46,538 bases of DNA, taken from the IMG/VR virus record IMGVR_UViG_2879754190_000005. One strand, 5' to 3'. The position numbers and the translations under genes are program-made. The notes under the pieces were generated by a model. That model ran no database searches. It was not told the origin of the DNA and saw only the letters and a program-made list of their open reading frames with translations. Source of the stretch: a virus. Lineage: Duplodnaviria; Heunggongvirae; Uroviricota; Caudoviricetes. Numbering within the stretch: the stretch's first letter is position 1; each line of letters opens with the position of its first letter. Of this stretch, positions 1 through 34,079 are shown piece by piece.

Positions 1-817
1 TTAAGCAGCCATCTGATGATATTTTTCCCTGAAGGCTGCCGGGGAGATATTCCCCAGACGAGAGTGACGACGCTGACGATTGTAGAAAATCTCAATGTAT
101 TCCCGTATTACTGAGATGGCTTCATCCCGGTTATTAAAACGATAGTGGCTCAGGCTCTCATTTTTCAGCGTTCCCCAGAAGCTTTCCATCGGAGCGTTGT
201 CGTAACAGTTACCTTTACGCGACATTGATGTTTCAGACCAGACTGCTCCTGTATGACCCGGTAATCGTATGCGCAGTACTGTGAACCTCGATCAGAGTGG
301 TGGATTAGCCCGGCAGGTGGGCGCTGGCTCCTGAGCGCCATAAACAGGGCTTTACCTGTCAGCTCTTTTGTCATGCGCTCTCCATGGCGTAGCCGACAAT
401 TTCGCACGTATAAACATCTTTGATGCCAGCGAGGTACAACCATCCCTCCTGTGTGGCAACATACGTCAGGTCCGCCACCCAGACCTGATTTGGTGCTGTA
501 GGAGCGAACGTCTGGTTCAGCAGATTTGGCGCAACTGGCAGATTGTGGTTCGGGTTCGTAGTCGCTCTGAACTTGCGTTTCTGCTTACAGCGTAGCCTCA
601 GCTCCTTACGAAGACGTGCCAGTCGGTCACGACCAACGATGATGCCATTCTCTGCCAGCTCCGTCTGGAGCCGCCGGGTTCCATATGTTTCGCGAGTGCG
701 GATATGTGCCACCTTAATCTCCAGTTTTAGCCGCTCATCACTTTGTTTTCTGTCTGAGGGTTCATGCTGTACCCAGTTGTAATAACCGCTCCTGGATACA
801 CCAAATACCTGACACAT
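1..817 (-). pseudogene. IS600 OrfB transposase, broken into three frames
   Basis: Three overlapping ORF pieces covering one OrfB sequence; carries the GG (not GGG) variant at ...GYAMESA* plus a second frame break near SGLK. Confidence 0.75.
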
Positions 818-865
818 CGCTTCAATGGGAAATTGTTGTCGCCATTGTTCGATTAACGCGTATTT

Positions 866-1153
866 TCAGCGACTCCTGTGCAAAATACGCTGTTGCTTTT
901 TTAATATATCTCGCTCAAGGCGAGCTTCATTTAACGCCTTACGCAGTTGCAGAATTTCAGATTCCAGTTCAGCCAGCGTGCGGGAACCAGGAGTACCGAG
1001 CCCTTTTCTGGCGGCGGTAACCCATTGTCCTAAAGTGCCTTCAGGAAGGGATAATCGGGAAGCGCCTTCACTGATTGAAAGTTGATTTTCAAGAACCGTT
1101 CTGACAGCTTCGGCTTTGAACTCTTTAGAGTAACGTTGGGTTTTTCTGCTCAT
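866..1153 (-). CDS. IS600 OrfA transposase subunit (variant C-terminus)
   Basis: 95 aa [24 protein letters not shown]...; C-terminus differs from the 44852-45154 copy (KKQQRILHRSR vs KKATAYFAQESLKNTR), indicating a local indel. Confidence 0.75.
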   Translation of the reverse strand: MSRKTQRYSKEFKAEAVRTVLENQLSISEGASRLSLPEGTLGQWVTAARKGLGTPGSRTLAELESEILQLRKALNEARLERDILKKQQRILHRSR

Positions 1154-1256
1154 TATTAGCTCCTTCTGATGCCATTCTATTTCAGGAAGGAGTGTCCGTT
1201 AAACTCAGGCTACCTCACTTATTCTAAGCAACCGGGTAGCATCATACGGGGCAATT

Positions 1257-10319: not shown

Positions 10320-10322
<3 letters not shown>
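9873..10322 (+). pseudogene. Q-like late-gene antiterminator, C-terminus replaced by IS911 terminus
   Basis: MIYPTNTGKSGEHLRLTTLESVWIQGKLRMWGRWSY...; its TGA stop is the first 3 nt of the IS911 end. Joining the IS911 flanks restores about 33 more codons ending in TGA. Confidence 0.5.
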
Positions 10323-11565
<1,243 letters not shown>

Positions 11566-11948: not shown

Positions 11949-13756
11949 ATGACCACTCAAATCTCTGTTGAAACTCTCTCCCCGATCACCCATAACCAGT
12001 GAGGTAGCCTGAGTTTAACGGACACTCCTTCCTGAAATAGAATGGCATCAGAAGGAGCTAATAATGAGCAGAAAAACCCAACGTTACTCTAAAGAGTTCA
12101 AAGCCGAAGCTGTCAGAACGGTTCTTGAAAATCAACTTTCGATCAGTGAAGGCGCTTCCCGATTATCCCTTCCTGAAGGCACTTTAGGACAATGGGTTAC
12201 CGCCGCCAGAAAAGGGCTCGGTACTCCTGGTTCCCGCACGGTGGCTGAACTGGAATCTGAAATTCTGCAACTGCGTAAGGCGTTAAATGAAGCTCGCCTT
12301 GAGCGAGATATATTAAATTGCACAGGAGTCGCTGAAAAATACGCGTTAATCGAACAATGGCGACAACAATTTCCCATTGAAGCGATGTGTCAGGTATTTG
12401 GTGTATCCAGGAGCGGTTATTACAACTGGGTACAGCATGAACCCTCAGACAGAAAACAAAGTGATGAGCGGCTAAAACTGGAGATTAAGGTGGCACATAT
12501 CCGCACTCGCGAAACATATGGAACCCGGCGGCTCCAGACGGAGCTGGCAGAGAATGGCATCATCGTTGGTCGTGACCGACTGGCACGTCTTCGTAAGGAG
12601 CTGAGGCTACGCTGTAAGCAGAAACGCAAGTTCAGAGCGACTACGAACCCGAACCACAATCTGCCAGTTGCGCCAAATCTGCTGAACCAGACGTTCGCTC
12701 CTACAGCACCAAATCAGGTCTGGGTGGCGGACCTGACGTATGTTGCCACACAGGAGGGATGGTTGTACCTCGCTGGCATCAAAGATGTTTATACGTGTGA
12801 AATTGTCGGCTACGCCATGGAGAGCGCATGACAAAAGAGCTGACAGGTAAAGCCCTGTTTATGGCGCTCAGGAGCCAGCGCCCACCTGCCGGGCTAATCC
12901 ACCACTCTGATCGAGGTTCACAGTACTGCGCATACGAATTACCGGGTCATACAGGAGCAGTCTGGTCTGAAAACATCAATGTCGCGTAAAGGTAACTGTT
13001 ACGACAACGCTCCGATGGAAAGCTTCTGGGGAACGCTGAAAAATGAGAGCCTGAGCCACTATCGTTTTAATAACCGGGATGAAGCCATCTCAGTAATACG
13101 GGAATACATTGAGATTTTCTACAATCGTCAGCGTCGTCACTCTCGTCTGGGGAATATCTCCCCGGCAGCCTTCAGGGAAAAATATCATCAGATGGCTGCT
13201 TAAAAAAAGAACAAATGGTAGTGTCCGCTATTGCCAGTACACCTCACAGATTCCTGTTATTACCACCGAACTTTTGGCGCAGCTTTACGGCACTGAGCCG
13301 GTGCGTATTCGCCAGAATCATCATGAGAACAAAGTACGCTTCGTTGAAGGGAAACACTTTTTCAAAGTTGTTGGTAATGACCTTAAAGAATTGCGGGTCG
13401 CTTTAAACTACTCACAAAATCCAGTTTCACCCAAAGCCCGCTCCCTCATCCTCTGGACAGAACGAGGCGCAGCACGCCACGGCAAAATGCTCGAAACCGA
13501 TCAGGCGTGGGATGTGTTCGAAAAACTGGAAGACTGCTATTTCAGTCAAAGGGATCCGTCAACGCCAGTTTCATGCCAGAAAAGTTACGACACGCGAGTT
13601 CTCTGTTATCAGAGAGGCGGTGTCACTGTTTCCACAATTCAGTTACGGGATGATGATATTGTTATTTCCCTTGAGTCATGGCTGGAACTGGCGAGAGCCA
13701 ATGGTTGGTTTGTTGTTCGCAGAGATAAACTGGTGGAAAGGTTGATGCAGCTTTAA
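11949..13756 (+). pseudogene. ORF6N/Ant-like (KilA-N-related) phage protein, interrupted by IS600
   Basis: Start ATG 11949 after GGAG; frame reads MTTQISVETLSPITHNQ, then IS600; after the duplicated CAG codon it continues IPVITTELLAQLYGTEP...LWTERGAARHGKMLETDQAW... to stop at 13756. Confidence 0.6.
12000..13246 (+). mobile_element. IS600 copy with 3-bp target duplication CAG and a 17-bp deletion of the frameshift window
   Basis: Termini TGAGGTAGCC... and ...CAGTACACCTCA; CAG at 11997-11999 and 13247-13249; relative to the 44788 copy the stretch AAAAGCAACAGCGTATT is missing, fusing orfA and orfB in frame (ORF 12064-12831). Confidence 0.9.
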
Positions 13757-15994: not shown

Positions 15995-16082
15995 AGGAGA
16001 CCATAGTCTAGGATGACACTTACTACAGACCTGTGTGGTCATGTTTTTGACTCATAGTTTTCTCTACTTGTCAAGGGATAAT

Positions 16083-16105
16083 TAATACGACTCACTATAG
16101 GGAGA
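16083..16105 (+). promoter_or_regulatory. T7 RNA polymerase promoter match, copy 1
   Basis: TAATACGACTCACTATAGGGAGA, 23/23 to the T7 class III consensus; +1 G at 16100. Confidence 0.8.
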
Positions 16106-16203
16106 AGGGACACAAAAAGTTTTCTCTTCTAGGATGACACTTACTACAGACCTGTGCGGTCATGTTTTTGACTCATAGTTTTCTCTGCTTGTCAAGGGGT
16201 AAT

Positions 16204-16226
16204 TAATACGACTCACTATAGGGAGA
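16204..16226 (+). promoter_or_regulatory. T7 RNA polymerase promoter match, copy 2
   Basis: TAATACGACTCACTATAGGGAGA, 23/23; +1 G at 16221. Confidence 0.8.
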
Positions 16227-16322
16227 AGGGACACAAAAGTTTTCTCTTCTAGGATGACACTTACTACAGACCTGTGTGGTCATGTTTTTGACTCATGGTT
16301 TTCTCTACTTGTCAAGGATAAT

Positions 16323-16345
16323 TAATACGACTCACTATAGGGAGA
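16323..16345 (+). promoter_or_regulatory. T7 RNA polymerase promoter match, copy 3
   Basis: TAATACGACTCACTATAGGGAGA, 23/23; +1 G at 16340. Confidence 0.8.
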
Positions 16346-16538
16346 AGGGACACAAAAAGTTTTCTCTTCTAGGACAACTAACCGTAACTTATCGCATCCT
16401 TTCAGGGGCGGGATGACCAATTACAGACACCAAGCGTTCTACTTAAAGTGAATGCTTCCTGTGTGCTCTGGGTCAGTCGATAAGTGAATAGCAATAAGAC
16501 ACAATCATCTTAATTATGGTCTCTAGTCCCTACAGGGG

Positions 16539-16742: not shown

Positions 16743-17989
<1,247 letters not shown>

Positions 17990-18369: not shown

Positions 18370-18525
18370 ATGTCTCAACAACCACAACAACCACAACAAG
18401 AAATCAGCATCATTAACCTCGACCAGCTTGTGTCCATGACCTCAGTTGAAATTGCTGAGCTGACAGGCAAGGAGCACCGAAATGTCCTTCGTGATATTCG
18501 TAAGATGCTCGAAGAACTTAACGCG
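18370..18525 (+). pseudogene. Rha/Ant-family phage regulatory protein, N-terminal stump truncated by IS1
   Basis: ...LVSMTSVEIAELTGKEHRNVLRDIRKMLEEL matches the Rha/antirepressor N-terminal motif; the last 9 codons and stop come from the IS1 terminus. Confidence 0.55.
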
Positions 18526-19293
18526 GGTAATGCTGCCAACTTACTGATTTAGTGTATGATGGTGATTTTAAGGTGCTTGCGTGGCTTCCATTTCCATCAG
18601 ATGTCCTTCCTGCTCCGCTACTGAAGGCGTGGTGCGTAACGGCAAAAGCACTGCCGGACATCAGCGCTATCTCTGCTCTCATTGCCGTAAAACATGGCAA
18701 CTACAGTTCACTTACACCGCCTCTCAGCCCGGTACGCACCAGAAAATCATTGATATGGCCATGAATGGCGTCGGATGTCGCGCCAGTGCACGCATTATGG
18801 GCGTTGGCCTCAACACGGTTTTACGTCACTTAAAAAACTCAGGCCGCAGTCGGTAACCTCGCGCATACAACCGGGCAGTGATGTGATTGTCTGCGCTGAA
18901 ATGGACGAACATTGGGGCTACGTCGGTGCTAAATCACGTCAGCGCTGGCTGTTTTACGCGTATGACAGGATACGGAGGACGGTTGTGGCGCACGTCTTCG
19001 GTGAACGCACTCTGGCCACACTGGAGCGTCTTCTGAGCCTGCTGTCGGCCTTTGAGGTCGTGGTATGGATGACGGATGGCTGGCCGCTGTATGAATCACG
19101 CCTGAAGGGAAAGCTGCACGTTATCAGCAAGCGTTACACTCAGCGCATTGAGCGACATAATCTGAATCTGAGACAACATCTGGCAAGGCTGGTACGGAAG
19201 TCACTGTCGTTCTCAAAATCGGTGGAGCTGCATGACAAGGTCATCGGGCATTATCTGAACATAAAACACTATCAGTAAGTTGGAGTCATTACC
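18526..19293 (+). mobile_element. IS1 copy 2 (no target duplication; abuts IS600 interior)
   Basis: 768 bp, InsA 18581-18856, InsB 18775-19278; left flank is the Rha-like stump, right flank is IS600 internal sequence. Confidence 0.92.
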
Positions 19294-20216
19294 CAGGAGT
19301 CGCTGAAAAATACGCGTTAATCGAACAATGGCGACAACAATTTCCCATTGAAGCGATGTGTCAGGTATTTGGTGTATCCAGGAGCGGTTATTACAACTGG
19401 GTACAGCATGAACCCTCAGACAGAAAACAAAGTGATGAGCGGCTAAAACCGGAGATTAAGGTGGCACATATCCGCACTCGCGAAACATATGGAACCCGGC
19501 GGCTCCAGACGGAGCTGGCAGAGAATGGCATCATCGTTGGTCGTGACCGACTGGCACGTCTTCGTAAGGAGCTGAGGCTACGCTGTAAGCAGAAACGCAA
19601 GTTCAGAGCGACTACGAACCCGAACCACAATCTGCCAGTTGCGCCAAATCTGCTGAACCAGACGTTCGCTCCTACAGCACCAAATCAGGTCTGGGTGGCG
19701 GACCTGACGTATGTTGCCACACAGGAGGGATGGTTGTACCTCGCTGGCATCAAAGATGTTTATACGTGTGAAATTGTCGGCTACGCCATGGAGAGCGCAT
19801 GACAAAAGAGCTGACAGGTAAAGCCCTGTTTATGGCGCTCAGGAGCCAGCGCCCACCTGCCGGGCTAATCCACCACTCTGATCGAGGTTCACAGTACTGC
19901 GCATACGATTACCGGGTCATACAGGAGCAGTCTGGTCTGAAAACATCAATGTCGCGTAAAGGTAACTGTTACGACAACGCTCCGATGGAAAGCTTCTGGG
20001 GAACGCTGAAAAATGAGAGCCTGAGCCACTATCGTTTTAATAACCGGGATGAAGCCATCTCAGTAATACGGGAATACATTGAGATTTTCTACAATCGTCA
20101 GCGTCGTCACTCTCGTCTGGGGAATATCTCCCCGGCAGCCTTCAGGGAAAAATATCATCAGATGACTGCTTAAAAAAAGAACAAATGGTAGTGTCCGCTA
20201 TTGCCAGTACACCTCA
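19294..20216 (+). mobile_element. IS600 3' fragment (orfB region only)
   Basis: Begins inside IS600 at ...CAGGAGTCGCTGAAAAATACGCG and ends at the IS600 right terminus ...CAGTACACCTCA (20216); orfB split 19356-19802 / 19799-20173. Confidence 0.9.
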
Positions 20217-23196: not shown

Positions 23197-24054
23197 CTAA
23201 TTGGGTGATAACAGATCCTGTGTATGGGCGTTTCCCTTTGTGCGTGCGTTGATGCTGGTAACGGTAAACGTCATGATGAACACGACCGCGAATAAGACGA
23301 CAATCGTCGGAGCTGGTGCGCTGTCGATAAAAAAGGACAGCCAGACACCAGTCATTGACACTATTACCGATATGCCAGTCGCCAGTAGGAGCGCAATATG
23401 AAAGCGTTGTGTCAGGAGTACTGCAATGGCGCCAGGCGCAATGAGCAGAGAAATAGAGAGAATGATACCTACTGCTTTCAGCGTCGCCACAATGGTCAGG
23501 GAAACCATGCACAGCAGCCCATAATGCAGCCATCTCGTATGCAAACCGCTTACCTGCGCCTGTTGATAATCAAAGCTGAACAGCAAAAAATCCCGCCATT
23601 TTACGCTAATAACAAGTGTAACCAGCCCGGCAATAATCACCGTCTGGATTATGTCGCCGATGGTTATCCCGAGCATGTCGCCGAAAAGAATATGGTCAAG
23701 ATGTACGTCTGGTTTAATTGCAATATACAAGATCAGACCTGCGGCAAACATGCCAGAAAAAACAATCCCCATAACTGTATCTTGCTTGATTCGGCTGTTG
23801 TCTTTCAGGTATCCCGTCGCCACCGCGCAGAATACTCCGGCGACGAATGCCCCTGTAGCCAGAGGTAACCCCAGAATCCAGGTAAGCACGATGCCAGGAA
23901 AAACCGCATGACTCATCGCGTCACCCATCAGTGCCCAACCTTTCAGGACCAGAAAGACCGACAGCAGCGCACAGGGTATGGAAACTACCAGTGAAATCAG
24001 CAGTGCGTGACTCATAAAGGTGAACTGCAGTGGCTCCAGTAATAATGCCATCAT
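23197..24054 (-). CDS. sitD: Mn/Fe ABC transporter permease SitD
   Basis: 285-aa polytopic membrane protein, last gene of a four-gene minus-strand operon with overlapping stop/start codons. Confidence 0.9.
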   Translation of the reverse strand: MMALLLEPLQFTFMSHALLISLVVSIPCALLSVFLVLKGWALMGDAMSHAVFPGIVLTWILGLPLATGAFVAGVFCAVATGYLKDNSRIKQDTVMGIVFSGMFAAGLILYIAIKPDVHLDHILFGDMLGITIGDIIQTVIIAGLVTLVISVKWRDFLLFSFDYQQAQVSGLHTRWLHYGLLCMVSLTIVATLKAVGIILSISLLIAPGAIAVLLTQRFHIALLLATGISVIVSMTGVWLSFFIDSAPAPTIVVLFAVVFIMTFTVTSINARTKGNAHTQDLLSPN

Positions 24055-24908
24055 GAGCGATCCTCCAGCGCTTTATGCGCACGCCGACGATTTGCCAAAA
24101 GTCCATGGGTGGGCGCAAATACAAATGCTAAAAGAAACAGCAGTGTCTGCGCCACCACGATGATTCCACCTGTCGCGCCGTCCAGAAAGTAACTGACCCA
24201 CGCGCCGAGGAAACTGGTTACACTGCCAATAGTTACAGCAATTATGAGCAGGCGGGGAAAACGATCGGTTAACAACCATGCTGTTGCACCGGGAGTCACC
24301 ACCAGACAGATCACCAGAAAGGCACCAACCGTTTGCAGCGCCGCAACGGTCGAAACCGACAGCAGGGTGAAGAAGAGGATTTTTAATCTGCCCGGATGTA
24401 ATCCAATAGCACGGGCGTGATTCTCGTCGAAAAAGGTCACCATAAGATCTTTCCATTTGAAAAAAAGCACGATGATCGAGAGAATGCCAATGATAGTGAG
24501 TTGCAGGATATCCGCCGGATCGATTGCCAGAATATTGCCCAGGACGATGGTCTGAATGTTCACGGATGTCGGGTTCAATGACACCATAAACAGCCCCAGG
24601 CCAAAAAAGGACGAGAAGATCAGGCCGATGATGGCATCTTCTTTTAAGCGGGTGCGTTGGTTAAGAAACAGCATGCTGCCCGCTGCCAGTCCGCCGGAAA
24701 AGAAGGCTCCCAGAGAAAACGGAAGCCCCAGCATATATGCCCCCGCAACACCCGGGACAATAGAGTGCGACAGCGCATCGCCAATCAGCGACCAGCCTTT
24801 TAGCATCAGATAGCATGACAGGAAAGCGCAGAGACCGCCGACCATTGCCGAGACCCACATCGCATTGAGCATATATTCATAGCTGAAGGGTTCCAGTAGC
24901 ACGTTCAT
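24051..24908 (-). CDS. sitC: Mn/Fe ABC transporter permease SitC
   Basis: 285-aa membrane permease paralogous to the downstream gene. Confidence 0.9.
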
Positions 24909-25732
24909 CTTGCTTCCCTCTGCACCGCTGACGGTCGATGTGCCACAAAAGGGCGTTCATCGTCAGTAATAATGCTTTCTTCCGAGCCGTTAAGTGTGAC
25001 ATGGCGCAGTACGCCGCTAAAAGCCAGCTCCAGGTTCTCGGCTGTAAAAGTGGTGTCTGTCGGCCCGCTTGCCAGGACGGTGCCTTTGACCATGACCGTA
25101 TAATCGCAAAATGTCGTGACTGAGCCGAGATTGTGCGTTGAGACAAGCATCGTTTTGCCTTCCGCGCGTAACTCCCTCAACAGGCTGATGATTTTCGCTT
25201 CGGTTTTCACATCAACGCCGGTAAAAGGTTCATCCAGCAGGATCACATCACCCTGCTGTGCAATTGCTCTCGCCAGAAAGACGCGTTTCTTTTGTCCACC
25301 GGAAAGCTCGCCGATTTGACGATGGCGAAAATCCACCATATCGACACGTTCCAGCGCATCGGTGACAATCTGACGATCCCTCTTTTTGGCTATACGCAAC
25401 ATACCCATATGCCCATAGCGGCCCATCATCACCACATCTTCCACCAGTACAGGAAATGACCAGTCAACCTCTTCTGACTGAGGGACGTAGGCAACCAGGT
25501 TTTTCTGTAGCGCCTGTCGCGTGGGAATACCCAGAACAGATATCTTTCCGCTGGTCAGACGCACAAATCCCATAATCGCTTTAAACAACGTCGATTTTCC
25601 GGAACCGTTTACCCCAACCAGAGCGGCAATAGATCCACTTGGTACTGTGAAGGATGCATCGCGCAGTGCTGTGTGCCCGTTACGCCAGGTGACAGTAACA
25701 TCATTAACGACAATGCCTGCAGATTGCATCAT
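24905..25732 (-). CDS. sitB: Mn/Fe ABC transporter ATP-binding protein SitB
   Basis: Walker [13 protein letters not shown] signature LSGGQKKR, Walker B ILLDEP. Confidence 0.93.
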
Positions 25733-26646
25733 TATTTCTCCCTTTTCCCGGCTTTAATTCCCTGTACCAGCGTACTGGTAGTAACCTTAAGAAGGTCGAT
25801 ATACGTAGGTACCGGGCCGTTTTCTGTGCTCAGGGAATCGACATAGAGCACACCGCCGTAGTGTGCGCCGGTTTCACGCGCAACCTGACGCGCTGGTTTA
25901 TCGGAAATCGTACTCTCGCTAAAGACTGCCGGGATATGATTTTTCTTAACTATATCAACAACCTTACGTACCTGCTGCGGTGTTCCTTGTTGATCGGCAT
26001 TAATCGGCCACAGATAAAGCTCTTTTAGCCCCAAATCGCGTGCGAGATAAGAAAAAGCCCCTTCACTGGTGACCATCCATCGCTGATTCTCAGGGAGTTC
26101 CGTAATCTGCTTACGCAGGGGGGCAAGGGTTTGGGTAATCTTGGCTTTATAAGTATCGGCATTACGTTGGTAGGTTTGTGCATTTGCCGGATCGTATTTT
26201 ATCAACGCATCACGAATATTATCGACGTAAATCAGAGCATTATCTGGCGACATCCATGCATGGGGATTAGGTTTGCCCTCATAGGGTCCTTCGGTGATCC
26301 CTACTGGCGTCACACCCGAAGAGACAATTACTTCTGGAACCCCATTGAGATGCTGGTAAAAGCGTTGGAACCACAATTCCAGATTCATACCATTGGCGAG
26401 AATCAGTTGTGCCCCCTGCGCACGTTTAATATCGCCAGGGGTAGGCTGATACTCATGAATTTCTGCACCAGGCTTGGTTATGGATGAGACTTCTGCAGCA
26501 TCTCCAGCCACGTTTTTGGCCATATCCGCGATGATGGTAAATGTTGTAATGACCTTGAATTTTTCAGTTGCACTTGCCTGAAATGCGATCGAGCAGGTGA
26601 GGGCGAGGCACCCCAAGAGCATGGTTACTTTTTTTATTGAGTGCAT
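25732..26646 (-). CDS. sitA: Periplasmic Mn/Fe-binding protein SitA
   Basis: 304 aa with signal peptide [26 protein letters not shown] and cluster-9 metal-binding protein character. Confidence 0.93.

Positions 26647-31567: not shown

Positions 31568-34079
<2,512 letters not shown>

Follow-up and report, generated by a model that had tools for sequence, protein, structure and literature searches.

A natural 17-bp deletion allele of IS600 that fuses orfA to orfB, found in a Shigella flexneri prophage gene and at a locus shared with Escherichia coli

The window analyzed here is the whole 46,538-nucleotide stretch of IMG/VR record IMGVR_UViG_2879754190_000005; it matches CP037996.1 (assembly GCA_002174695.2) at 100% over 21,161 bp. 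On its plus strand, a prophage gene for an ORF6N/Ant-like protein is interrupted by a 1,247-bp copy of IS600 (copy A, positions 12000 to 13246, delimited by pairwise alignments), which leaves a 5' portion of the gene at 11949 to 11999 and a 3' portion at 13250 to 13756. Copy A begins and ends with terminal imperfect inverted repeats (TGAGG...CCTCA) and is flanked by a 3-bp target-site duplication, CAG, read off the sequence at 11997 to 11999 on the left and at 13247 to 13249, directly ahead of the 3' portion of the gene, on the right. These ends, the 3-bp duplication, and the orfA/orfB organization are shared with canonical IS600, a 1,264-bp element of the IS3 family found in Shigella and E. 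coli, and the length of copy A is accounted for as the canonical 1,264 bp minus 17, minus 1, plus 1. In alignment with the IS600 of pWR501, copy A is 98.3% identical with the gap counted; outside the 17-nt deletion and two 1-bp indels, the two sequences differ by only two substitutions.

Canonical IS600 has two overlapping ORFs, whereas copy A has one and no OrfA. The ORF list gives a fused orfA-orfB' frame of 255 aa at 12064 to 12831 (plus strand), ending ...GYAMESA before the stop, and the sequence upstream of this ORF is unchanged relative to the canonical element. Pfam places HTH_Tnp_1 at residues 3 to 75 and HTH_21 at residues 134 to 190, followed by a match to only positions 2 to 44 of the 102-position rve profile; the complete DDE (rve) domain is missing from the ORF of copy A in the window and present in the orthologous copies and in the E. 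coli allele described below. The stop at 12829 to 12831 results from a GG at 12819 to 12820, where canonical IS600 and the orthologous copies read GGG, and an extra A at 12937 to 12938 (CGAATT versus canonical CGATT) introduces a second frameshift. The rest of orfB lies out of frame at 12832 to 13203; the last two residues of the DDE motif (its second D and its E) and the rve_2/rve_3 regions are encoded there.

The initial annotation had described a 17-bp gap in copy A relative to the IS600 copy at 44788 (copy B), and alignment of the two confirmed a single 17-nt gap: copy A reads TATTAAA/TTGCAC, with the junction between 12317 and 12318 (feature 12315 to 12320, plus strand), and copy B reads TATTAAA-AAAAGCAACAGCGTATT-TTGCAC. 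The same gap was seen against the canonical 1,264-bp IS600 of pWR501, in which the missing stretch, AAAAGCAACAGCGTATT, corresponds to nt 319 to 335. Removal of the A7G slippery run was likewise borne out, since the deleted interval takes in four of its seven A's and the G, along with the spacer and the greater part of the hairpin's 5' arm. In canonical RNA this hairpin, GCGUAUUUU/AAAAUACGC, lies a short spacer downstream of the slippery run and has a predicted folding energy of -13.1 kcal/mol (z = -1.8), whereas the region carrying the deletion is predicted to fold at -3.0 kcal/mol. Copy A is IS600 by sequence and by its ends, yet it lacks the defining recoding feature of the family: the programmed -1 frameshift cassette of canonical IS600 (slippery A7G, spacer, and 5' hairpin arm) is gone, and in place of an A-AAA-AAG motif with a hairpin and two overlapping ORFs there is a single uninterrupted ORF that starts with orfA and runs on in the frame of orfB, extending to 379 aa in the orthologous copies.

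A loss of 17 nt is equal to six codons plus a -1 shift, and the earlier claim that orfA and orfB are joined in this way without ribosomal frameshifting agrees with the frame at 12064 to 12831. The amino acid sequence of OrfAB is not preserved across the junction. The conceptual -1 frameshift product of canonical IS600 is 385 aa long and reads ...DILKKSNSVFCTGVAEKY..., and the fused ORF reads ...DILN-CTGVAEKY..., with KKSNSVF replaced by N and a net loss of six residues. This loss takes out the fourth and last heptad (F91/V95 register) of the leucine zipper, the heptad positions L63-L70-A77-L84-F91 becoming ...L84-E91 with a glycine at position 88; in OrfAB of IS911, the zipper motif holds the multimerization function (PMC2909936). 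By taking away the A-AAA-AAG slippery site, spacer, and hairpin 5' arm and putting orfB in the orfA frame, the deletion (delta17) would leave an element that cannot make the 100-aa OrfA and does not need ribosomal slippage, and its sole possible product would be OrfAB minus six residues at the last zipper heptad. Microhomology-mediated slippage was considered as the origin of delta17 and rejected, as the only nearby repeat (TATT...TATT) predicts a 20-nt loss with another junction; reading of the alignments revealed no microhomology at the delta17 junction.

Copy A is one of five IS600 copies in the window. Copy c1 (1 to 1217, minus strand) is cut by the window edge and additionally has A6 for A7, A4 for A5, and A3 for A4. 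Copy c3 (19294 to 20216) has its 5' end cut by IS1, and copy c4 (31568 to 32107 plus 33353 to 34079) is split by an IS911-like element. Copy B (44788 to 46049, plus strand, 1,262 bp), used for comparison above, is located within a prpA-like phosphatase gene and flanked by a GTT duplication; its frameshift window is intact and its orfA stops after 100 aa, and it carries the GG variant as well as CCGG in place of CCAGG. The orthologues of copy B in other assemblies are intact IS600 elements with products of 385 aa or of 100 plus 272 aa.

The fused frame had initially been described as cut short by the GG variant and the extra A. Both changes are indeed present in the window; however, they are private to it, and the orthologous copies encode the full 379 aa. 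Comparison of the window with the nearest assemblies (L007 for copy A and L020 for copy B) revealed five 1-bp indels and no substitutions in 11.8 kb: GGG to GG at 12819, A to AA at 12937, an extra T in unique DNA at 42923, CCAGG to CCGG at 45214, and GGG to GG at 45623. Both truncating indels are absent from the orthologous copy A in every other assembly examined. No database record was found for the exact 255-aa protein, a look-up that came back empty because the source record, CP037996.1, treats copy A as a pseudogene and has no protein called for it. The GG variant is present in four of the five IS600 copies of the window, and we considered whether it is a common IS600 allele; this was rejected, as a 44-nt GG-variant query matched a single record (one place) in a plasmid collection in which an IS600 query found 2,806 places in 890 records (including 140 Shigella plasmids). 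From these comparisons, the two 1-bp indels appear private to assembly CP037996.1; errors in the consensus are their most likely cause, and if real they would reflect no more than decay of very recent date. An excess of homopolymer-type indels without substitutions points to such errors, as real decay would bring substitutions too. As a counterpoint, the occurrence of GG in four of five copies could mean that a real variant has been spread by conversion within the strain. As judged from the alignments, the 255-aa product should be treated as provisional, and the truncation as a property of neither the allele nor the locus.

We screened for delta17 elsewhere with a 44-nt junction query (window positions 12296 to 12339) that cannot seed on canonical IS600. 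The junction was found at 100% identity in 461 of 5,426 complete E. coli genomes (~8.5%), with a median of one and a maximum of two copies per positive genome, and in 33 metagenome contigs; together with its presence in many S. flexneri assemblies, this overturns the initial view of the deletion as a one-off and possibly an artefact. The E. coli element is otherwise intact and carries a single 1,140-nt CDS of 379 aa, WP_000088357.1, with no frameshift flag; the allele is thus already in the databases under the generic name "IS3 family transposase," and the exact protein is found on at least 1,000 contigs. Pfam gives it the full set of HTH_Tnp_1, HTH_21, rve, rve_2, and rve_3. Copy A and this allele have an identical junction and are three SNPs apart, with the differences P202S and S306F in canonical OrfAB numbering (residues 196 and 300 of the 379-aa protein), and the GG and extra A of the window reduce its ORF to 255 aa. 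A literature search, incomplete in its coverage, found no published description of the delta17 allele.

All inspected E. coli delta17 places correspond to one locus, in which IS600 lies between capU-virK-lpxM and a BCCT transporter-DUF2254 pair. E. coli "plasmid" hits and second delta17 copies were considered as possible new insertions and rejected, as all of them lie at this same locus, and among the inspected places there was no evidence for mobility of delta17 in E. coli. A total of 1,495 genomes carry the IS600/BCCT junction. In an evenly spaced sample of 60 rows for this locus, delta17 accounted for ~6, canonical IS600 for ~11 (including the B-strain derivative NEBExpress), and IS600 interrupted by IS30 for ~3. 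In several E. coli genomes the delta17 element is the sole IS600, whereas canonical IS600 reaches up to 43 places per genome. Judging from this distribution, delta17 appears to be an old inherited allele that is widespread in E. coli and S. flexneri.

In S. flexneri, copy A with both 1-bp indels repaired in silico is exactly the 379-aa protein P0002 (ASQ63612.1 and others), which is found on 19 S. flexneri contigs and in two contexts, the ORF6N site (L003 and others) and the BCCT locus (L005 and L012). The ORF6N context consists of a Q-antiterminator-like DUF1133 gene, a 61-aa ORF, IS600, ORF6N, and an integrase, with the junctions seen in the window and CAG on both sides, and the intact 379-aa protein is present at this site in at least 10 other S. 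flexneri assemblies. Over ~7.1 kb, the window and L007 are the same except that copy A has its two 1-bp indels and that an IS911-like element is additionally present in the window at 10320 to 11565. When the ORF6N site was reconstructed without IS600 and with a single CAG, it was 100% identical over 241 nt to an intact ORF6N gene in four E. coli genomes; the IS600 at this site is thus a simple transposition product. The junction between the left flank and the IS in the window had no matches in complete E. coli genomes, and by this comparison the occupied ORF6N site appears to be Shigella specific.

A survey of the ORF6N site, keyed on the upstream 61-aa ORF (which ends in the IS terminus), revealed that both alleles occur there among S. 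flexneri strains. The canonical 385-aa form is present in L034, L036 (plus five similar places), L037, L038, and L042 (plus one), and the delta17 form of 379 aa is present in L035 (plus five) and L039 (plus three). Two further 1,247-bp elements at the site have no called protein, namely L041, which is the window's own record, and L040, in which the element is N-masked in the stored sequence and the deletion is not readable. The locus-specific SNPs 169C and 816T of the delta17 copies are also found in the canonical copies L034 and L042, and L036, L037, and L038 have other 169/816 combinations, giving a mosaic pattern. Because canonical copies with the same locus-specific SNPs occupy the ORF6N site, the element that inserted there need not have been delta17.

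Delta17 is ancestral at the BCCT locus, which is common to E. coli and S. flexneri, and its most likely route into the ORF6N copy is gene conversion of a short patch from one IS600 copy to another. The 169/816 mosaic has the appearance of a signature of patchwise conversion among IS copies, and a delta17 donor at the BCCT locus is available in the species. Against conversion, a single extra locus with a perfect target duplication is equally well suited to a real jump, and transposition of a delta17 element would be the alternative route to the ORF6N copy. Metagenome delta17 contigs with novel flanks (e.g., L057, with an AAC duplication) were not counted in favor of transposition, since the interior of a 1.25-kb repeat cannot be phased with its flanks in short-read assemblies. 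Independent recurrence of the identical 17-nt loss is less likely than conversion because the junction has no microhomology; nevertheless, the alleles delta3, delta13, and delta14 at the same spot show that the site is mutable, and delta17 may have recurred independently.

To assess the state of the fused ORF, we used 22 full-length delta17 copies ascertained by DNA pattern alone, 21 of which keep the 379-aa frame. Their unique changes comprise 19 nonsynonymous and 7 synonymous mutations, corresponding to a dN/dS of ~0.8, a value that rests on 26 mutations from metagenome contigs, which may be chimeric across IS copies. Domestication of the 379-aa ORF, or purifying selection on it, is unsupported at this dN/dS. 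The lack of expansion, the near-neutral evolution, and the damaged zipper argue against high activity or selection, as far as population sequences can indicate. The reading that we consider probable is that copy A represents an insertion of IS600 into a prophage ORF6N gene of S. flexneri and that it carries the inherited delta17 allele, acquired by conversion, as a near-neutral and essentially immobile relic whose two 1-bp indels are private and most likely errors. Such an allele would behave as an inert or weakly active relic, not as a hyperactive or domesticated transposase.

The frameshift window of IS600 is also a hot spot for IS30 and IS1 insertions and for other small deletions. IS30 lies in IS600 at nt 326/327 in L023 (the BCCT locus), in L024 (O157:H7, where its orientation is opposite), and in L087 (K-12). 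Copy c3 of the window is truncated by IS1 5 nt beyond the interval deleted in delta17, and another IS600 copy is interrupted there by IS1 (L045). One enteroinvasive E. coli (EIEC) pINV carries delta14, a frame-restoring deletion annotated as a single 380-aa CDS; this was considered as a second widespread fused allele and rejected, as its junction was found in none of the RefSeq complete E. coli genomes. Delta13 (L044) does not restore the frame. In metagenomes, small alleles at the same place read GCAAC/GTATT (five contigs), GCA/GCG, and GCAAC-TGTT-TTGC.

With respect to origin, delta17 and its smaller relatives may be scars left by imprecise loss of IS30 (or IS1) from the frameshift window. 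The IS30 insertion point, with its AC target-site duplication, falls in the middle of the deleted interval 319 to 335, and IS1 cuts IS600 within a few nucleotides of that interval (window 19293/19294; L045). In the GCAAC/GTATT allele the missing letters are AGC, at precisely the point where IS30 inserts, and in GCAAC-TGTT-TTGC the letters TGT match the 3 nt with which the IS30 end begins. Loss of IS30-family elements proceeds through near-precise deletions that depend on transposase, and IEE stimulates excision of the IS1, IS3, and IS30 families (bioRxiv 10.1101/2023.06.07.543989). However, the reported scars of IS30-family excision vary by only a few nucleotides (SD of 2.4 nt for ISApl1; bioRxiv 10.1101/2023.06.07.543989), and delta17 requires a loss of 7 plus 8 nt of flank; its junction has neither microhomology nor leftover IS30 bases, precise target-restoring excision does not occur for IS30 (PMC9333248), and the co-location may just reflect a fragile AT-rich hairpin region. 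A scar origin is plausible for the small alleles and possible for delta17, and as a common account of them all we regard it as unlikely.

It is less likely still that delta17 is an autonomous, frameshift-independent transposase allele whose fused OrfAB is active and whose ORF6N copy arose by its own transposition. The precedent comes from the laboratory: engineered in-frame orfA-orfB fusions of IS911 yield active transposase on their own (PMC2909936), and fused-frame OrfAB constructs of IS911, IS2, and IS3 (PMC2909936, PMC3219604) resemble delta17 in giving transposase without frameshifting and without OrfA. By analogy with IS911, delta17 should give constitutive OrfAB and no OrfA; its full-length ORF keeps all five Pfam domains and has been retained in 21 of 22 copies ascertained without bias, and at the ORF6N site the ends are intact, the CAG duplication is perfect, and the empty site is known. 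The laboratory constructs, however, had one base inserted and the OrfAB sequence kept, whereas delta17 arose by loss of 17 nt and lacks six residues of the zipper and linker, including the fourth heptad of a motif that carries the multimerization function in IS911 OrfAB (PMC2909936). The population data also argue against high activity, to the extent that sequence comparison can address it: delta17 has not expanded and remains one copy at one locus in E. coli even where it is the sole IS600, its dN/dS is ~0.8, and canonical copies with the same SNPs occupy the ORF6N site.

A combination of the two preceding proposals, to which we assign a low probability, is that a frameshift-independent delta17 was born by imprecise IS30 loss and has been kept since because the OrfA-less, zipper-shortened protein retains a function, as a dominant modulator of canonical IS600 or as a low-level autonomous transposase. 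If this were true, other insertion sequences would repeatedly target the recoding cassette of IS3-family elements and would thereby rewire the regulation of those elements.

That the 255-aa truncated fusion is made, binds IS600 ends, and acts in trans as an inhibitor or regulator of the ~30-plus canonical IS600 copies is, on the analogy available, very unlikely. The model for it is OrfAB[1-149] of IS911, which lacks the catalytic domain and yet outperforms full-length OrfAB in binding and pairing the terminal repeats (PMC2909936). As assembled, the 255-aa ORF would similarly retain the N-terminal part for DNA binding without most of the DDE domain, and its upstream sequence is native; it differs from OrfAB[1-149] in being longer, in keeping HTH_21 and the first D, in having an altered zipper, and in that it may be a mere consensus error. 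The zipper is needed for dimeric binding, the truncating indels are missing from orthologous copies elsewhere, and the exact protein is in no database. The idea rests on a product that may not exist, because the two truncating bases are probably errors. Finally, an artefact of assembly or sequencing can be dismissed as the explanation of the 17-bp deletion in the window's genome: although several IS copies of this assembly contain suspicious 1-bp indels, and its unique DNA contains another, losing 17 nt away from any homopolymer is atypical of consensus error, and the identical junction is found in the 461 E. coli genomes, the 33 metagenome contigs, and at the same site in at least 10 independent S. 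flexneri assemblies.

Annotators and IS-typing tools record a delta17 copy under the generic name "IS3 family transposase" or call it a pseudogene, and the 1-bp indels found here show that what looks like a biologically interesting truncation can be a consensus error within a repeat. That insertions of IS30 and IS1 cluster with small deletions in the frameshift window is a minor, checkable point on the targeting of one insertion sequence by another. IS3-family elements curb their own activity, their transposase being made only via rare ribosomal frameshifting, and a natural allele without frameshift control in hundreds of E. coli and Shigella genomes constitutes a ready-made test of what that control is for. 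The single copy, the fixed locus, and a dN/dS near 1 suggest that losing this control did not unleash the element.

Comparison of 11.8 kb of the window with the nearest S. flexneri assemblies revealed five single-base indels (positions 12819, 12937, 42923, 45214, and 45623) and no substitutions. Most of these indels lie within homopolymers or at a CCAGG Dcm site, a GGG-to-GG change is common to four of the five IS600 copies, and in the copy at 1-1217 the slippery run is A6 instead of A7. The indels look like consensus errors clustered in repeats.

A prpA/pphA-like Ser/Thr phosphatase gene (Metallophos) at 44338-46238 is divided by an IS600 copy (copy B) flanked by a GTT duplication; this insertion was found in many S. 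flexneri assemblies, in which the IS is intact. Another copy (31568-34079) is interrupted by a 1,245-bp IS911-like element at 32108-33352, and two further copies of this element are present at 10320-11565 and 16743-17989. The insertion at 10320 is not present in L003 or L007, two of the S. flexneri assemblies carrying copy A, the IS600 with the 17-bp deletion, at the same ORF6N site. Also on the window are an ipaH-type effector gene (LRR_TTSS and NEL; 41106-42821, minus strand), a four-gene ZnuA/ABC-3 metal-uptake operon (23197-26646, minus strand), and a tandem repeat of approximately 120 bp (16007-16374) downstream of a 534-aa integrase gene, all in surroundings of prophage remnants, with IS1 present four times and a 1.33-kb IS2-like element twice.

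At the E. coli BCCT transporter locus, the sequences flanking the ancestral IS600 differ (CAA on the left and ACA on the right), with no matching 3-bp duplication (L001, 5990-6000 and 7248-7260). The left flank varies between contigs, being IS1 or other sequences, which suggests a rearrangement adjoining the element.

Two other IS600 copies carry deletions at the same place as the 17-bp deletion. One, of 14 bp (L043, 2001-3250; EIEC pINV, CP119444.1), restores the frame and is annotated as a single 380-aa CDS, and its junction had no match among RefSeq complete E. coli genomes; the other, of 13 bp (L044, 2001-3251), does not restore the frame. These are independent events. IS1 elements were also observed nearby: one, within 18525-20216 of the window, truncates IS600 copy c3 at canonical nucleotide 341, 5 nt past the 17-bp deletion interval, and another breaks IS600 near nucleotide 322 in E. 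coli O121 (L045).

IS600 nucleotides 326/327, in the frameshift window, form an IS30 insertion dinucleotide (target site duplication AC) shared by several E. coli lineages, with IS30 seen in both orientations (L023, 270-335 and 1480-1500; L024, 1480-1500; L087, 2066-3542). Among metagenome contigs (L051, L060, L073, L074, L083, and L061), a 3-nt deletion allele, GCAAC|GTATT, is located precisely at the IS30 insertion point, and one allele has TGTT in place of AGCGTATT, with TGT matching the bases at which the IS30 end begins; both alleles may be excision footprints. Since IS30 occupies the same dinucleotide in several E. coli lineages, K-12 and O157:H7 among them, the recoding cassette of one insertion sequence, IS600, is a hot spot for another, IS30.
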